From positions 1 to 8,430 of IMG/VR virus record IMGVR_UViG_2778260991_000010: a DNA stretch of 8,430 bases; one strand, given 5' to 3'. The DNA is from a virus. Its lineage: Duplodnaviria > Heunggongvirae > Uroviricota > Caudoviricetes. The notes beneath the pieces are model-generated. The model did no database searches. It was not told the DNA's origin and saw only the letters and a list, made by a program, of their open reading frames with translations. Positions 1-8,430 of the stretch are shown piece after piece (position 1 is the first letter of the stretch; each line of letters begins with the position of its first letter). The position numbers were made by a program, and so were the translations under genes.

Positions 1-915
1 AAATCCGTTTTCACGTTCCCACTGCTCACGTGCTGCCCGAATTTCCTGAACTGCCCGTGATGCGGTGCCACCTGGCGCTGCTGCATGTCTCACCCCCTTG
101 CTGACTGGTTTAACCTGCGCCCTGACGTGATTTACGTGACGGGCGAATTTCTGCTCCCACTGAACCTGGCTAAACACTTTGCCATCATCACTCCAGTAAT
201 CCCGGAATGCGGCAAGTTCAGCAGGTGTAAATTCTGGTTCCGGCAAAGCCATCCCCCACAACGCAGCCCGTCGTCGAAAATCCTGTGACGGATGCCAGTC
301 ATCGGTCATCGGAAATTTTCCAATGGGCTCGCTCAGGCCATCCAGGAATACAGGGGGCGCAGCCTGTAACGACAAAACTTCCTGCTCACTGGTCGGAGCA
401 CTCTCGCGTGCGTTATGTGTGGGGTTTAGATCTTTGGGTTCCTTTGGGTTCCGTGATCCGTTTTTGGGTGTCTTTGATGGAAAATTTGGGTGTCTTTGGT
501 TATTTTCCATGCAGCAAAGAGTTCCGTTTTTGGGGCTGTTTTGTGCTGAAACATAACCGTTTTCGGTACTGTTTTTATTAACAGTACCAATTTCACCCAC
601 CTTTAAAGACTCCCGTTTTTGGGTGTATTCAGGCTCGGCAACACTTTCTTCTACACCGATAAGTCGGTACACCACAATTTGCTTTGTTCTGCCTTTTCTC
701 TCACCGGTATCAACAATTAACCCAATCTCCATCAGGTGTCGTAAGCTGTCCTGCACAGTCTTTTTGTTCAGTTCCGTTACTTCTGCCAGTGCAGATACAG
801 ACGGGTATGCACACAAATCGGCACCGCACATATCAGCAAGCCAGGTCAATACTGACTTACTGGATGAACTGCCGGTTTTCACCTTTTTAGCCCATCGTAG
901 TGCATCGATACTCAT
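1..915 (-). CDS. Phage replication initiation protein, 5' part only (N-terminal winged-helix-like domain, iteron-encoded linker, DnaT-like C-terminal region); C-terminus lies beyond the window start
   Basis: Minus-strand frame is open for all 305 codons from the ATG at 913-915 to the window edge; with no stop in the window it is absent from the ORF track. Hand translation begins MSIDALRWAKKVKTGSSSSKSVLTWLADMCGADLCAYPSVSALAEV...GRTKQIVVYRLIG, then a low-complexity linker, then ...FRDYWSDDGKVFSQVQWEQKFARHVNHVRAQ. Start codon is uncertain because the frame stays open upstream of 915. Plus-strand ORFs listed here (85..288, 285..581, 623..1087) look like antisense shadows. Confidence 0.6.
   Translation of the reverse strand, partial: MSIDALRWAKKVKTGSSSSKSVLTWLADMCGADLCAYPSVSALAEVTELNKKTVQDSLRHLMEIGLIVDTGERKGRTKQIVVYRLIGVEESVAEPEYTQKRESLKVGEIGTVNKNSTENGYVSAQNSPKNGTLCCMENNQRHPNFPSKTPKNGSRNPKEPKDLNPTHNARESAPTSEQEVLSLQAAPPVFLDGLSEPIGKFPMTDDWHPSQDFRRRAALWGMALPEPEFTPAELAAFRDYWSDDGKVFSQVQWEQKFARHVNHVRAQVKPVSKGVRHAAAPGGTASRAVQEIRAAREQWERENGF
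431..630. repeat. Iteron array plus AT-rich inverted repeat; putative replication origin inside the replication gene
   Basis: Tandem TTTGGGTTCC at 433-442 and 443-452. CCGTTTTTGGGTGT at 458-471 and 613-626, with variants at 524-537 (CCGTTTTTGGGGCT) and 557-570 (CCGTTTTCGGTACT), and TTTGGGTGTCTTTG at 463-476 and 485-498. Perfect 9-bp inverted repeat GGTACTGTT (565-573) / AACAGTACC (580-588) around the spacer TTTATT. Same layout as the lambda origin inside gene O. Confidence 0.55.
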
Positions 916-1438
916 ACGAACCCCTGGCAGACATTTGTTTATCTGCAAAGTAATATTGGTATTGCTGACGATACGCGTGCTTGAAAGCAATAGCTTTTTC
1001 TATAAGCTCGTCAGTCTCACGTTCCACAACAGCTGGATCCGCAAAAAGCAGCCCGGACTCCACCACATCGCCATATTCTTTGTTTAACCCGGCGATCATG
1101 TACGTAATGCTTTTTCCGTCAGTAATTTCACAATACAACCTGAAATCGCTGATCCGGATAGCCTCCATAATTGCCGGAATCAGCGCCGTGAATTTTTCCC
1201 GCTTATCCCTGGTGTCGATAGCTTTCCAGCGTTCGAATATCTTCACCCGGTTAACGCCCAGCACCCGTTGATCAACCGCTCCATCATCAAACGTGACGCG
1301 TTGAACATCGATGTTCGGGCGTTCTTTCAGTGCCCAGAATGCTTCCGTGATTAATATCGTCGCCTGCTCCTGTGTCATTCCTGGTCGGCATACCCAGGTA
1401 TCCAGAGCCTCACAAACCTGTTCAGGGGTGATTTTCAT
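887..1438 (-). CDS. YdaT-like prophage protein (183 aa), downstream of the cro-like gene
   Basis: ORF-track entry with ATG at 1436-1438. Its start overlaps the last codons of the upstream cro-like gene by 17 nt, and its stop (887-889) overlaps the replication gene start. The segment KIFERWKAIDTRDKREKFTALIPAIMEAI resembles what I recall of Rac YdaT, and the position matches the ydaS-ydaT-replication layout. Family assignment is from memory, not a search. Confidence 0.5.
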   Translation of the reverse strand: MKITPEQVCEALDTWVCRPGMTQEQATILITEAFWALKERPNIDVQRVTFDDGAVDQRVLGVNRVKIFERWKAIDTRDKREKFTALIPAIMEAIRISDFRLYCEITDGKSITYMIAGLNKEYGDVVESGLLFADPAVVERETDELIEKAIAFKHAYRQQYQYYFADKQMSARGSYEYRCTTMG

Positions 1439-1649
1439 TGTTCAACCGCCCCGCCCGCTTTGCCTTACGATATTCGTCATAAACTTTGGGGTCGTACTGA
1501 AGTTCCCCGCCGGATGCCTCTTGCAGGCGCATCGCGCGACCTTCAGGAACCAGTTCCCCCCATTGAGAAACAGCAGATGGATCAACACCAGCAGCTTTCG
1601 CTACTTTGGCTTTCGTCCCATAAAAATTAATTGCGTCTGATTTAAACAT
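1422..1649 (-). CDS. dicC: Cro-like helix-turn-helix regulator, DicC/YdaS family
   Basis: The ORF-track entry 1422..1661 begins at a TTG. The likely true start is the ATG at 1647-1649 (MFKSDAINFYGTKAKVAKAAGV...), directly preceded on the minus strand by GGAGGGGG. About 75 aa, divergent from the repressor gene; the C-terminal half matches my recollection of DicC. Confidence 0.75.
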   Translation of the reverse strand: MFKSDAINFYGTKAKVAKAAGVDPSAVSQWGELVPEGRAMRLQEASGGELQYDPKVYDEYRKAKRAGRLNNENHP

Positions 1650-1663
1650 CACCCCCTCCAAAG

Positions 1664-1677
1664 TTGAGTTTTCTCAA
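1664..1677. promoter_or_regulatory. Operator-like palindrome TTGAGTTTTCTCAA in the divergent dicC/dicA control region
   Basis: TGAG-N4-CTCA inverted repeat between the start codons of the divergent regulators (1649 and 1728). The same 13-mer recurs at 2197-2209. Confidence 0.45.
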
Positions 1678-1727
1678 TAGTAATCACTCAAGGAATCTCA
1701 AGTCAAGGGTTATTAAGATATCTAAAT

Positions 1728-2135
1728 ATGAACGATAAAACTTTAGGTCAACGAATTAGAGAAAGACGCAAACAGGTTGGTTTAAGTCAAAACGATTTAA
1801 GCAAAGCCGCTGGCGTATCTGGCTCATCAATTTCACTATGGGAAAGCGACCATACAGCCCCGCGCGGGCAAAATTTGCATCGCCTGGCTGAGGTATTGCA
1901 ATGTTCACCAACTTGGATACTGTTTGGTGACGAGGATAAAACACCAGATCCACCAGTTGCACTCAACAGCGCCTTAGACTTATCGGAAGATGAGTTGGAG
2001 ATGTTGCGATTGTATCGCGCACTTCCAAAATCAGAGCAGCAAGCACAAATCAGCGAACTCCGTGCCCGCGTTGAGAATTTTAATCGCCTATTCACCGAGC
2101 TACTAGAAGCTCGCAAACGTAACAAACATCAGTAA
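1728..2135 (+). CDS. dicA: XRE-family helix-turn-helix immunity repressor, DicA-like
   Basis: 135-aa ORF. N-terminal HTH (QRIRERRKQVGLSQNDLSKAAGVSGSSISLWE) and the motif LQCSPTWILFGDEDK followed by a C-terminal helix, matching what I recall of E. coli DicA (also 135 aa). Divergent from the cro-like gene. Confidence 0.85.
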   Translation: MNDKTLGQRIRERRKQVGLSQNDLSKAAGVSGSSISLWESDHTAPRGQNLHRLAEVLQCSPTWILFGDEDKTPDPPVALNSALDLSEDELEMLRLYRALPKSEQQAQISELRARVENFNRLFTELLEARKRNKHQ

Positions 2136-4537: not shown

Positions 4538-7009
4538 ATGAATAAAGTCTTTATTTGTGCAGCTATTCCAGACGAACGGGCAATAAAGGAAGAAGGTGCA
4601 GTCGCTGTGGCCACTGCCATTGAAGCCGGTGACGAGCGCCGCGCCCGAGCCAAATTTACCTGGCAATTCCTGGAGCAATATCCGGCTGCTCAGGACTGCG
4701 CTTATAAATTTCTTGTCTGTGAGGATAAACCCGGCATGCCCCGCCCTGCCATTGACTCCTGGGATACCGAATATATGCAGGAAAACCGCTGGGATGAGGA
4801 ATGCGCTTCCTTTGCTCCGGTCGAACCAGAATCCGATCCGATGAACGTCAATTTTGACAAGCTGTCCCCTGAAGTACAGAACGCGGTCCTGGTTAAGTTC
4901 GGTACATGTGAAAACATCACCGTTGATATGGTGATTAGCGCGCAGGAATTGTTGCAGGAAGACATAGCAACATTCGACGGACATATCGTTGAAGCGTTGA
5001 TGAAAATGCCAGAAGTTAACGCCATGTATCCGGAGCTTAAGCTGCATACCATCGGGTGGGTTAAGCATAAATGTAAGCCTGGTGCCAAATGGCCCGAAAT
5101 TCAGGCAGAGATGCGCATCTGGAAAAAACGTCGCGAAGGTGAACGCAAGGAAACCGGGAAATACACGTCTGTTGTTGATCTCGCCCGCGCCAGAGCCAAT
5201 CAACAGAACACTGAAAATTCAACAGGAAAAATCAACCCGGTCATTGCTGCCACTCATCGCGAATACAAGCAGACATGGAAAACACTGGATGACGAACTGG
5301 CCTACGCTCTCTGGCCTGGTGACATTGATGCCGGAAACATTGACGGCAGCATCCATCGCTGGGCAAAAAATGAAGTTATCGACAACGACCGCGAAGACTG
5401 GAAGCGTATCTCGGCATCAATGCGCAAACAGCCTGATGCCCTTCGCTACGACTGCCAGACTATTTTTGGCCTTGTCCGTGAACGTCCGATCGACATTCAC
5501 AAAGACCCTGTAGCACTGAACAAATACATTACTGAATACCTGACTACAAAGGGCGTGTTTGAAGATGAAGGAAGAAATCAGAGCGCAACTGATACTCTCT
5601 CGTCGCCAGTACCAGAAACTGATGCAGTGGAAACGGCAATTCCGGACAACGAAAAAACCGAATGCAAAGTGGAAGTCGAACCATCTGTAGAGCGTGAGGG
5701 GCCGTTCTACTTCCTCTTCACCGACAAGGATGGCGAAAAATACGGTCGCGCAAACAAACTTTCTGGTCTGAATAAGGCGCTGACTGCAGGGGCTACTGAA
5801 ATCACGAAAGAAGAATATTTTGCCCGCAAAAACGGTACATACTCAGGTTCACAACAAAATACTGGTGCATCTGACACGACCGCACAACCAGAGCCGGTAA
5901 AAGTTACCGCTGACGAAGTAAACAAAATTATGCAGGCAGCCAATATCAGCCAGCCTGACGCCGATAAGTTGCTTGCTGCCTCTCGCGGAGAATTTGTTGC
6001 AGGGATTAGCGACCCGAATGATCCGAAATGGGTGAAGGGGATTGAAACCCGCGACTCTGTAAACCAGAACCAGCAAGAATCGGAACAGAACGACCAGAAA
6101 ACGGAACAAAACAGCCCAAATGCGTTACAAAACGAGCCAGAAACGAAACAGGTTGAACCAGTAGCGCAACAGGAGCCGGAAAAAGCCTGCACCGCCTGCG
6201 GTCAGACCGGCGGCAGTAGCTGCCCTGATTGTGGTGCGGTGATGGGTGACGCAACATACCAGGAAATATTCGATGAAGAGCATCAGCCTGAAGTTCAGGA
6301 AAATGATCCGGAGGAAATGGAAGGCACTGCGCATCAGCACAAGGAGAACACTGGCGGCAATCAGCATCATGCCAGCGATAGTGAAACTGGCGAGGCATCA
6401 GATCCCTTAATTAAGGCGAACGGTCATCATAATCTCACATCCACCAGCAGAGCGGAGATTCATCTGATGATCGACCTTGAAACCATGGGAAAAAATCCCG
6501 ATGCCCCGATTATCTCAATAGGCGCAATATTTTTCGATCCACAAACCGGAGATATGGGACCGGAATTTAGCAAGACCATCGATCTGGATACTGCTGGCGG
6601 AGTCATTGATCGTGACGTCATTAAATGGTGGCTTAAGCAATCACGCGAAGCGCAATCTGCCATTATGACCGATGAAATCCCGTTAGATGATGCACTGTTA
6701 CAATTGCGGGAATTTATCGACGAAAACTCCGGTGAATTTTTTGTTCAGGTCTGGGGAAATGGAGCCAACTTCGACAACACGATTTTGCGCCGTTCATACG
6801 AACGGCAGGGGATCCCCTGCCCGTGGCGTTACTACAACGATCGCGATGTACGCACAATCGTTGAGCTGGGGAAAGCCATAGACTTCGATGCCAGAACGGC
6901 TATTCCATTCGAAGGTGAGCGCCATAATGCACTTGATGACGCCCGTTACCAGGCAAAATACGTTTCAGCAATCTGGCAAAAACTGATCCCGAATCAGGCT
7001 GATTTTTAA
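4538..7009 (+). CDS. Large prophage exonuclease (823 aa): N-terminal exodeoxyribonuclease VIII-like region, acidic Q/E/N-rich linker with a CxxC-x7-CxxC zinc ribbon, C-terminal DEDDh 3'-5' exonuclease domain
   Basis: ATG at 4538 preceded by GAGGT. C-terminal motifs IDLETMG, WGNGANFDNTIL and HNALDDARYQAKY are typical of DnaQ-like DEDDh exonucleases. Zinc ribbon CTACGQTGGSSCPDC is encoded at 6188-6232. Sits where recE/ydfE-like genes lie in Rac/Qin-type prophages. Internal minus-strand ORFs (4511..5203 and others) are antisense shadows. Confidence 0.7.
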   Translation: MNKVFICAAIPDERAIKEEGAVAVATAIEAGDERRARAKFTWQFLEQYPAAQDCAYKFLVCEDKPGMPRPAIDSWDTEYMQENRWDEECASFAPVEPESDPMNVNFDKLSPEVQNAVLVKFGTCENITVDMVISAQELLQEDIATFDGHIVEALMKMPEVNAMYPELKLHTIGWVKHKCKPGAKWPEIQAEMRIWKKRREGERKETGKYTSVVDLARARANQQNTENSTGKINPVIAATHREYKQTWKTLDDELAYALWPGDIDAGNIDGSIHRWAKNEVIDNDREDWKRISASMRKQPDALRYDCQTIFGLVRERPIDIHKDPVALNKYITEYLTTKGVFEDEGRNQSATDTLSSPVPETDAVETAIPDNEKTECKVEVEPSVEREGPFYFLFTDKDGEKYGRANKLSGLNKALTAGATEITKEEYFARKNGTYSGSQQNTGASDTTAQPEPVKVTADEVNKIMQAANISQPDADKLLAASRGEFVAGISDPNDPKWVKGIETRDSVNQNQQESEQNDQKTEQNSPNALQNEPETKQVEPVAQQEPEKACTACGQTGGSSCPDCGAVMGDATYQEIFDEEHQPEVQENDPEEMEGTAHQHKENTGGNQHHASDSETGEASDPLIKANGHHNLTSTSRAEIHLMIDLETMGKNPDAPIISIGAIFFDPQTGDMGPEFSKTIDLDTAGGVIDRDVIKWWLKQSREAQSAIMTDEIPLDDALLQLREFIDENSGEFFVQVWGNGANFDNTILRRSYERQGIPCPWRYYNDRDVRTIVELGKAIDFDARTAIPFEGERHNALDDARYQAKYVSAIWQKLIPNQADF

Positions 7010-7073: not shown

Positions 7074-7322
7074 ATGGCAAGACTTATTCTGCTCACTGAG
7101 TGGGCAAAAGAGGAATTCAGCGATCCGGTCCCTACTCCGGGCACGTTAAGTAAATACGCTAAAGCCGGAATGATATTTCCTCTCCCCAAAAAAGTTGGAA
7201 GACACTGGCGAGTGGATCCGCGAGCTCGCTTTGTCGGAATGGTAAACAAGCCGGAGGTGATCGCCACAGATCACCCTGCTTTGAAGAGGATACTGGAAGA
7301 TGGCGCGCCCGCGAAAATATAA
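7074..7322 (+). CDS. xis: Excisionase (lambda Xis-like)
   Basis: 82-aa ORF immediately upstream of int, overlapping it by 23 nt, as with lambda xis-int. Small basic DNA-binding-like protein (EWAKEEF...FPLPKKVGRHWRV). Weak ribosome-binding site, so the start is uncertain. Confidence 0.65.
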   Translation: MARLILLTEWAKEEFSDPVPTPGTLSKYAKAGMIFPLPKKVGRHWRVDPRARFVGMVNKPEVIATDHPALKRILEDGAPAKI

Positions 7323-8430
7323 AACCAATGTTCCGGGATTATCTCCGTATTTTGACAAAAGAAATAACAAAGTTTACTGGCGTTACAGGCATCCCATAAC
7401 AGGCAAAAATCACGGTCTCGGCAGTATTGACCAGAAACTGGCAGAAACTATTGCAGCAGAAGCGAACAGCCGTCTTGCCAGGCAGCAAATGGAACAAATG
7501 CTCAGTCTGCAGGAGAAAATTATTAATGATACCGGCGGTTCATCAACCGTTTCCATTTTTCTGAATAATTACAGAAAAATTCAACAGGAAAGATATGAAA
7601 ACGGAGAAATCAAACTCAACACGCTGAAACAGAAAGCGGCCCCTCTCAGGGTTTTTGATGAACGTTTTGGCACCAGACCGTTAGATGCCATAACCGTAAA
7701 GGATGTGGTATCGGTGCTGGAAGAGTACAAGTCCAGAGGACATAACAGAATGGGACAAATTTTCAGGAAGGTACTGATCGATGTTTTCCGGGAAGCTCAG
7801 CAAACGGGCGATGTCCCGCCAGGCTTTAACCCTGCAGAATCGGCAAAAAAACCACAGGTGCGGATATCAAGACAGCGACTAACTTTTGATGAGTGGACGA
7901 TGATTTATAACGCAGCGGAAAAGGATGGTTACTTTTTACAGCGCGGTATGCTGCTGGCACTGATGACAGGCCAGCGCCTTTCAGATATTTGCAAAATGCA
8001 ATTTTCGGATATCCGGGATGGTTATCTTCATGTCGAACAGCAAAAAACAGGAACCCGGATTGCCATCCCTCTGGCTCTGCGTTGCGATAAATTAAATCTC
8101 ACCCTGGATGATGTGGTGTCATCCTGTCGCGATTGCGTTCTTAGTCCGTGGCTATTGCACCATCATCACGCGAAAGGGACAGCTAAGCGCGGCGGGATGG
8201 TTAAGCCAGCAACGTTAACCGTTGCATTTAAAAAAGCGCGGGATTCTGTGGATTACAACTGGCGTGCTAATGGCACCCCACCCTCTTTCCATGAGCAGAG
8301 ATCTTTATCAGAGCGATTGTTCAGAGAGCAGGGAATTGATACCCAAATTTTGCTGGGTCATTCGAATCAAAAAATGACCGATATTTACAACGATGCACGC
8401 GGCAAGGAGTGGAAAAAACTGGTCATTTGA
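7300..8430 (+). CDS. int: Tyrosine-type site-specific integrase, lambda Int family
   Basis: 376-aa ORF with GAGGA upstream. Clear similarity to lambda Int from memory: YVEQQKTGTRIAIP, PPSFHEQRSLSERL, and the C-terminal LLGHSNQKMTDIYNDARGKEW carrying the catalytic His and Tyr. Stop codon is at the window end. Confidence 0.9.
   Translation: MARPRKYKTNVPGLSPYFDKRNNKVYWRYRHPITGKNHGLGSIDQKLAETIAAEANSRLARQQMEQMLSLQEKIINDTGGSSTVSIFLNNYRKIQQERYENGEIKLNTLKQKAAPLRVFDERFGTRPLDAITVKDVVSVLEEYKSRGHNRMGQIFRKVLIDVFREAQQTGDVPPGFNPAESAKKPQVRISRQRLTFDEWTMIYNAAEKDGYFLQRGMLLALMTGQRLSDICKMQFSDIRDGYLHVEQQKTGTRIAIPLALRCDKLNLTLDDVVSSCRDCVLSPWLLHHHHAKGTAKRGGMVKPATLTVAFKKARDSVDYNWRANGTPPSFHEQRSLSERLFREQGIDTQILLGHSNQKMTDIYNDARGKEWKKLVI

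Follow-up and report, generated by a model that had tools for sequence, protein, structure and literature searches.

An array of repeats inside a replication-initiator gene

The stretch of DNA analysed here, referred to below as the window (8,430 bp), is the early/immunity region of a Rac-like lambdoid prophage of Escherichia coli. At its left end lies a gene for a replication initiator and, within this gene, an array of short repeats which is the subject of this work and a candidate replication origin. An earlier note on the same DNA had placed an iteron-type origin at 431–630, in the part of a replication gene that encodes a linker. Both the position and the identity of the gene hold. The repeats occupy 432–630 on the coding (minus) strand, codons 96–162 of the gene, wholly in the reading frame, and lie between a winged helix (amino acids (aa) 1–90) and a DnaT domain (aa 201–267), within a linker predicted to be disordered. 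The gene is found at the O position, after a cro-like and a cII-like gene. Its full-length orthologue in the PPompW prophages of Shiga-toxin-producing E. coli, the closest phage records (97% identity over 1–1563), is a protein of 346 aa annotated as 'phage replication protein' and matches phrog_1032, 'replication initiation protein' (E 9e-91). The gene and its two domains are as follows.

1..915, minus strand: replication-initiator gene, first 305 of about 346 codons, continuing past the left window edge (translation, Pfam, PHROG)
631..915, minus strand: N-terminal winged-helix domain, aa 1–95 (AlphaFold pLDDT 86–96 for aa 1–90)
115..315, minus strand: DnaT-like single-stranded DNA (ssDNA)-binding domain, aa 201–267 (Pfam PF17948, 64.9 bits, E 5.6e-18)

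In the AlphaFold model the N-terminal domain (N-domain) is composed of helices followed by a beta-hairpin wing; its Foldseek matches to winged helices of the MarR, ArsR and TFE types are weak. Most database homologues of the initiator carry PF13730 (HTH_36-type); phage initiators that combine HTH_36 with a DnaT domain go by the annotation 'primosomal protein I'. With HTH_36 the window protein scores 21.2 bits, under the 25-bit cut-off, and its homologue from Edwardsiella phage EPP-1 scores 30.5 bits. Among 15 homologues the invariant residues of this domain are K52 and T53, at the start of the presumed recognition helix, and D69, G71, R73, G75 and T77 in the wing, a constancy which may parallel that of the near-invariant DNA core described below. 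The domain is presumed to be the iteron-binding module. Linker residues 91–194 have pLDDT values below 50 and are predicted to be disordered. The C-terminal domain matches DnaT chains of the PDB by sequence (E 1.7e-19) and, in Foldseek, the structures 4ou6 and 6aeq with target-normalised TM scores of 0.85–0.92 and 54–57% identity; the latter is also its identity to the ssDNA-binding domain solved with dT10.

The array includes four strong units, two decayed ones (579–604 and 472–497) and a 10-bp tandem tail (432–451); the units take up codons 96–158, and their starts on the coding strand are 26, 30, 33, 44 and 22 nt apart. The uneven spacing and partial degeneracy described in the earlier note are thus confirmed, and the number of units, which it had left uncertain, can be set at four strong and two decayed. 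The scores listed here are those of a 26-nt weight matrix (consensus on the coding strand AAACACACCCAAAAACGGGACTGTTA) trained on 53 distinct sites, all of them from homologous genes in other genera and none from the window.

605..630, minus strand: iteron 1, GAATACACCCAAAAACGGGAGTCTTT, read EYTQKRESL, core in frame 2, 32.3 bits
579..604, minus strand: decayed or variant unit 2, AAAGGTGGGTGAAATTGGTACTGTTA, core GTGAAATTGG, -1.1 bits
549..574, minus strand: iteron 3, AAACAGTACCGAAAACGGTTATGTTT, read NSTENG, core in frame 1, 27.9 bits
516..541, minus strand: iteron 4, AAACAGCCCCAAAAACGGAACTCTTT, read NSPKNG, core in frame 1, 29.0 bits
472..497, minus strand: decayed unit 5, AAAGACACCCAAATTTTCCATCAAAG, -18.0 bits
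450..475, minus strand: iteron 6, AAAGACACCCAAAAACGGATCACGGA, read KTPKNG, core in frame 1, 23.3 bits
432..451, no strand assigned: 10-bp tandem CTTTGGGTTC x2 (GAACCCAAAG on the coding strand; Tandem Repeats Finder 432–452, 2.1 copies, 100% matches)
565..588, no strand assigned: perfect 9-bp inverted repeat GGTACTGTT/AACAGTACC, arms 565–573 and 580–588, spacer TTTATT

Almost every enterobacterial homologue has iteron 1 at coding position 294. The decayed units can also be recognised by alignment. In Edwardsiella, Plesiomonas and Serratia, unit 2 aligns with a full iteron and unit 5, which retains the left arm and half of the core, with the CCCAATTTTGG variant; the GAAATTGG variant is also present in L106 and L108, two of the homologous loci considered below. 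The tandem tail, with which the array ends, retains part of a left arm and does not score as an iteron. Iteron 3 gives a mirror score of 10.1 bits on the plus strand, reflecting its own dyad symmetry.

A general repeat search returned a 19-nt unit four times (458–476, 524–542, 557–575 and 613–631) and a 15-nt unit three times (433–447, 463–477 and 485–499); the core CCGTTTTTGGG is found without mismatch at 458, 524 and 613 and with two mismatches at 557. Counted over the whole window, short patterns of this kind (TTTGGGTGT, and CCGTTTTTGGG with mismatches) are not significant alone, since 15–20 of 200 shuffles equal the observed number. The weight matrix gives four minus-strand matches of 23.3–32.3 bits, all within 450–630. 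On both strands of 401–660 there are five matches above 8 bits, against a mean of 0.01 and a maximum of 1 in 500 shuffles, and the remaining 8,170 bp of the window contain none above 8 bits on either strand. The refinement of the motif across homologues, which the earlier note had called for, has yielded a matrix from other genera whose strong matches in the window are confined to 450–630. Helical phasing of the units was also looked for and no consistent phase was found, with spacings of 22–44 bp here and of 17–68 bp, most often 18–33 bp, in homologous arrays.

Units are about 24–26 bp long and have the form AA-N5-CC(A/G)AAAACGG-N5-TT. Over 70 distinct sites, the AA at -7/-6, the CC(A/G)AAAACGG at 0–9 and the TT at +15/+16 are near-invariant. 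The AA and TT pairs, like the CC and GG pairs, are complementary in 73–100% of these sites, so that the outer pairs are dyad-symmetric about an asymmetric A-tract centre. Arm complementarity is 0.50 compared with 0.21–0.32 in shifted controls, and the inner arm positions are only weakly symmetric.

The 9-bp inverted repeat with its AT spacer, to which the earlier note had drawn attention, is indeed perfect in the window. It does not stand as a separate hairpin or DNA-unwinding element: the alignment shows it to be the junction of two neighbouring units, decayed unit 2 contributing its right arm and unit 3 its left arm, and in the majority of 81 close E. coli relatives it is disrupted by the change A331G (coding position). 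These relatives are the near-identical copies which alone were returned by a scan of viral contigs with the N-domain, and they served for the analysis of polymorphism. A terminator-like match at 520–537 on the plus strand was likewise rejected, as it is only iteron 4 seen on the non-coding strand. Two GATC (Dam) sites, 429–432 and 455–458, flank the tandem tail, the second lying inside the last iteron, and both are retained in most of eight aligned genera. They could be relevant to methylation/SeqA control or be a coding coincidence.

Conservation of the motif as DNA and its association with the N-domain

The question raised in the earlier note, whether the repeats are absent from close homologues, is answered in the negative: the core CC(A/G)AAAACGG recurs 2–7 times at the same place in the homologous genes of 18 further loci, which span Gamma- and Betaproteobacteria and their phages. 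EPP-1, whose DNA is 67% identical over the N-domain and linker, carries, in the corresponding part of its gene, five to six CCCGTTTTTGGGTGTCTTT copies that are mostly spaced by 33 bp. A genome scan with a 5-sequence alignment provided eleven chromosomal homologues with the motif (Scandinavium, two Enterobacter, Kluyvera, Plesiomonas, three Edwardsiella, Serratia, Yersinia and Reinekea); their N-domains are 45–78% identical and their linkers contain 3–6 copies of CC(A/G)AAAACGG. Three distant relatives at 27–36% protein identity, located on a Logan-assembly contig (protein named for Ralstonia), in a Salmonella prophage and on a metagenome contig, have 3–7 copies, and nothing else scores in their 4–6 kb. 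Among isolated phages there are 6 copies in phiV10, 7 in Vibrio phage H20, 2 in Acinetobacter phage AP22 and 3 in Burkholderia phage Bcep176. In all seven of these loci (three distant relatives and four isolated phages, 3–6 kb each) there is no other site above 8 bits. The arrays of phiV10 (L109 1356–1510) and H20 (L110 1517–1672) are tight, with a period of 18–24 bp, which shows that the family has no fixed distance between units. Three of the H20 units have one and the same sequence, from which a fourth departs at two positions; they encode the repeated peptide NRPENGTL. Within E. coli, the 400–915 segment, comprising N-domain and array, is present in 908 of 5,426 complete genomes, where its sole annotation is 'DnaT-like ssDNA-binding domain-containing protein'.

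What is conserved in these arrays is the DNA rather than the peptide. Across loci the core is read in three frames, giving (T/P)KNG or TENG in frame 1, TQKR in frame 2 and GPKTG in frame 0; the window itself uses two of them (YTQKRE in unit 1, TENG or PKNG in units 3, 4 and 6). The last unit, iteron 6, is invariant as DNA in an alignment of eight genera, with its CCCAAAAACGG core unchanged in 8/8. E. coli, Kluyvera, Scandinavium and Yersinia read this unit in frame 1; Edwardsiella, Plesiomonas and Serratia read it in frame 2. When sites in the linkers are defined by their peptide, AAC and A/GAA are the codons at all 40 of 40 [KE]NG sites, and CAAAAACGG is the sequence of 14 of 15 QKR sites, counts which are drawn from related sequences and hence are not independent. 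Synonymous recodings of the window linker (n=2,000) contain a mean of 0.83 matches above 15 bits compared with 4 observed; summed over the top four, they score 37 +/- 13 bits and at most 84, and none of the 2,000 reaches the observed 112.5 bits. The reading in three frames and the failure of recoding thus point to selection on the DNA and not on the peptide, and the peptide repeats of the linker appear as a side effect of the DNA constraint.

The motif is associated with one part of the protein only. N-domain and array occur together with five different arrangements of C-terminus and helicase partner.

PPompW: DnaT domain and short lambda-P-like protein
EPP-1: Phg_2220_C and full-length lambda P
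Salmonella prophage: lambda-O-like C-terminus and lambda P
L106 and AP22: DnaB-type helicase
L108: IstB/DnaC-type loader

Conversely, YdaU of prophage Rac has the same DnaT half with a different N-domain and lacks the motif. The motif thus belongs to the N-terminal domain and not to the C-terminus or the partner, and its exchange, as a unit with this domain, against at least five partner types documents a modular exchange of origin specificity among phages. A mosaic joint of this kind can be located in the window itself. Positions 1–435 are 86–87% identical at the DNA level to ydaU of Rac-SA53 and to a phage record labelled Actinobacillus, and positions 436–915, comprising the N-domain and the array, have no counterpart in Rac; the joint falls inside the initiator gene at about 431–435, right at the end of the array, at a conserved AAAGATCTAAACCCCACACAT (KDLNPTH) which directly follows it. 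In the Salmonella prophage the initiator (L107 2501–3226) has a C-terminal end, KPKLDLNNTDWIYGVEL, nearly identical to that of lambda O, and a lambda P gene comes next. This locus is a natural hybrid between the origin-specificity module and the lambda O/P interface.

Relationship to known replication modules

The closest known system is lambda, with which the Stx phages 933W and P27 and their six-iteron origins are grouped. As in ori-lambda and gene O, the array is located in the initiator gene, after the winged helix and before a C-terminal part that binds a partner, and it has four good units. The lambda iterons (ATCCCTCAAAACGAGGGA) begin right after the O winged helix, at codon 117, and are read in different frames, as is the case here (PMC7466680). 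Both types of unit have a dyad around an A-tract (TCCCTC-AAAAC-GAGGGA in lambda, ACACCC-AAAAAC-GGGTGT here). The gene order is also shared, with cro, a cII-like gene, the initiator and a P-like loader, and early rightward transcription would cross the array. The likeness to lambda drawn in the earlier note is therefore justified for iterons inside the initiator gene, their position in the linker, the dyad and the gene context. It does not extend to the AT-rich tract: no 40-bp stretch of 80% AT follows the array, whereas that of lambda lies directly after iteron 4. In addition, the iteron sequence is different, the units are spaced 22–44 bp apart rather than about 20–24 bp and the C-terminal domain is DnaT-like instead of Phg_2220_C. 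In lambda, two iterons and the AT-rich region suffice for unwinding in vitro (PMC7466680).

At the level of sequence families the initiator is not a lambda O protein by BLASTP, Pfam or hhalign. There is no BLASTP alignment with lambda O and no Pfam Phage_rep_O match at E <= 0.01, and hhalign returns a weak similarity (probability 17%) restricted to the helix-turn-helix. A remote homology is nevertheless suggested by weaker PHROG 'O-like' matches of the initiator (E 4e-12 to 1e-7) and by a published HHpred assignment of the lambda O N-terminus to HTH_36 (PMC5509034).

The P-like gene lies beyond the window and was observed in the full PPompW prophage, whose order is cI-like and, on the other side, cro-like, cII-like, initiator and P-like. 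Its product matches Phage_lambda_P (E 1e-15) and PHROG 'P-like helicase loader'. This gene (L002 2022–2444), just past the left end of the window, encodes only 140 aa, which match positions 61–161 of a lambda-P profile 162 positions long and so lack the N-terminal part of P. The C-terminal half of the initiator and the P-like protein are both covered by one PHROG family, phrog_15931 (482 positions), as if they were fused.

Rac (ydaU-ydaV-ydaW; oriJ), for which an active origin, oriJ, has been reported (PMC3945230), is the same type of prophage with a similar dicA/dicC/ydaT-like regulatory neighbourhood. Its YdaU shares the C-terminal DnaT-like half (84% identical in protein, 86% in DNA). In contrast, the N-terminal domain of Rac YdaU is unrelated and none of these iterons is present, from which it follows that the specificity module (initiator N-domain plus origin) has been swapped. 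DopC, a domesticated lambda-O-like protein (Brezellec et al. 2017), likewise has two domains, an HTH_36 N-terminus and a DnaT-like C-terminus, and a lambda-P-like partner; for the window protein the HTH_36 match is under the cut-off. According to its authors, the dopC locus has no iteron-like sequences and no origin (PMC5509034). Here iterons are present and conserved; the comparison, in which dopC is taken from its published description, fits iterons as a feature of the origin and not a requirement of the protein.

Plasmid iteron origins (pPS10 RepA, F RepE, R6K pi and P1 RepA) resemble the array in having direct repeats of variable number and spacing, with a winged-helix initiator encoded next to them. 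They differ in that their iterons lie outside the rep reading frame, whereas the array is wholly inside, in that their initiators have two winged-helix domains and in that they usually carry DnaA boxes and an AT-rich region, none of which was found here.

Function of the array and prophage surroundings

The array itself, the conservation of its DNA, its linkage to the N-domain and the domain architecture are matters of observation. Together with the specificity of the matrix, the gene context and the lambda-like layout, they make it probable, on the evidence of comparison, that 450–630 (with decayed units to 432) is a set of initiator-binding iterons forming the replication origin of this Rac-like/PPompW-type prophage. 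Binding, unwinding and helicase loading would then follow lambda O and ori-lambda by analogy. Transcription from the early rightward promoter would pass through the cro-like, ydaT/cII-like and initiator genes and so across the array. Dimers of the initiator would occupy the four good units through the N-terminal winged helix, and the bound DNA, bent at its A-tracts, could form an O-some-like complex in which nearby DNA is destabilised or opened, the least stable stretch being 547–586. The DnaT-like domain may hold the single strands and, with the short lambda-P-like protein, might deliver host DnaB.

Several observations weigh against this assignment. An AT-rich tract like that of lambda is absent: the highest AT content over 40 bp is 70% (547–586, inside the array), a value attained by 3.6% of the 40-nt segments of the 8,430 bp, compared with 80% in lambda, and downstream of the last unit the DNA is not conspicuously rich in AT. 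Neither a DnaA box nor an IHF consensus site is present in 1–1000. Conservation among the 81 close E. coli relatives is uneven. The 10-nt core of iteron 1 is invariant, with one right-arm position (coding 305) varying in 7/81, and the whole of iteron 6 is invariant; the unit 3 core carries C357T in the majority and the unit 4 core G391A in 15/81, the window having consensus-like alleles at both units (compared with loci L004–L083). Strong cores are not depleted of variable positions in this set (5/40 nt, against 39/240 nt of linker). Only units 1 and 6 thus look strictly constrained, and it would seem either that just two or three units are constrained on this timescale or that numerous copies belong to prophages in decay; prophages of this type may often be defective. 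The non-independence of the codon counts should be added. Finally, literature searches, which did not reach many older papers in subscription journals, found no binding or replication experiment on this family, no description of this iteron family and nothing specific on the position of oriJ, on phi80 gene 15 or on the epsilon15/phiV10 origin.

Some of these points would also be expected if the repeats were genuine initiator-binding sites with a role in control (autoregulation, roadblock, titration/handcuffing or exclusion of related phages) and the origin lay elsewhere in the prophage. Such a role would accommodate the lack of an adjoining AT-rich unwinding tract or DnaA box and the tolerance of core changes in units 3 and 4. 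Plasmid iterons serve both initiation and copy control. The iterons of Vibrio chromosome II are likewise involved in both (PMC3401445). We nonetheless consider a purely regulatory array unlikely, given that the only well-studied analogue, the array in gene O, is an origin (PMC7466680, PMC6022878), that the array is the sole conserved repeated signal of non-coding type in each scanned 3–6 kb replication module and that some loci leave little intergenic space for another origin. It is much harder still to regard the repeats as functionless DNA, a by-product of recent slippage or of the need for a low-complexity linker peptide (PKNG/TENG). Disorder is indeed predicted for the linker, the peptide motifs NSTENG and PKNG are conserved across 15 homologues and the 24-bp array of Vibrio phage H20 is plainly tandem. 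However, a single 10-nt core specifies different peptides in three frames, the last unit shifts frame between lineages while its DNA is invariant, codon choice is fixed at sites defined by peptide and none of the 2,000 synonymous recodings attains the observed DNA score; we regard this explanation as very improbable.

The array might also be the target of a factor other than the initiator, whether from the host or the phage, or a recombination 'linker' promoting the exchange of modules. The joint with Rac ydaU right at its end (about 431–435) and the conserved AAAGATCTAAACCCC which follows it in several genera are in keeping with such a role. Yet the motif accompanies the HTH_36-type N-domain in phages with no other regulators or partners in common and is absent where this domain has been replaced, as in Rac YdaU, and its dyad-symmetric 24-bp units would fit a dimeric winged-helix protein. 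We therefore give this possibility very little weight and retain initiator-binding iterons of an origin as the probable function.

The principle of iterons inside an initiator gene has been known since lambda, and the array does not represent a new kind of system. Its immediate interest is that initiators annotated only as 'DnaT-like ssDNA-binding domain-containing protein', 'primosomal protein' or 'helix-turn-helix protein' gain a predicted origin and a site model, the motif being present in phages of at least six other genera as listed (Edwardsiella, Escherichia, Vibrio, Acinetobacter, Burkholderia and a Salmonella prophage). More speculatively, CC(A/G)AAAACGG and the lambda unit TCCCTCAAAACGAGGGA might derive from one ancestral initiator-origin pair and belong to a single ancient superfamily of HTH_36-type winged helices with in-gene iterons in phages of Gamma- and Betaproteobacteria, a proposal that we put forward tentatively and think more doubtful than the origin function itself. 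If it were true, a site would have been held near constant while threaded through all three frames of a disordered linker. The family would then illustrate cleanly, in nature, how a DNA-binding site can dictate the protein sequence of the coding region that contains it. A rule based on sequence only would also make it possible to find origins in hundreds of phages, as well as in prophages carried by about one sixth of E. coli genomes.

The window has the following further features.

887–1438, minus strand: YdaT_toxin-family protein, 183 aa, in the cII position (PHROG match 'CII-like transcriptional activator')
1422–1661, minus strand: Cro/DicC-like gene
1677..1706, minus strand: sigma-70-like promoter upstream of the cro-like gene (TTGACT, 18 nt, TACTAT; 9/12 consensus positions, consensus match only)
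1728–2135, plus strand: cI/DicA-like repressor
4538–7009, plus strand: open reading frame (ORF) of 823 aa with a C-terminal Rv2179c-like 3'-5' exonuclease domain (E 7e-66)
7074–7322, plus strand: excisionase
7300–8430, plus strand: integrase

The promoter at 1706–1677 would drive transcription of the cro-like, ydaT/cII-like and initiator genes through the array. The stop of the YdaT-family gene overlaps the start of the initiator gene by 29 nt. The N-terminal and central part of the 823-aa ORF is long, acidic and of low complexity.

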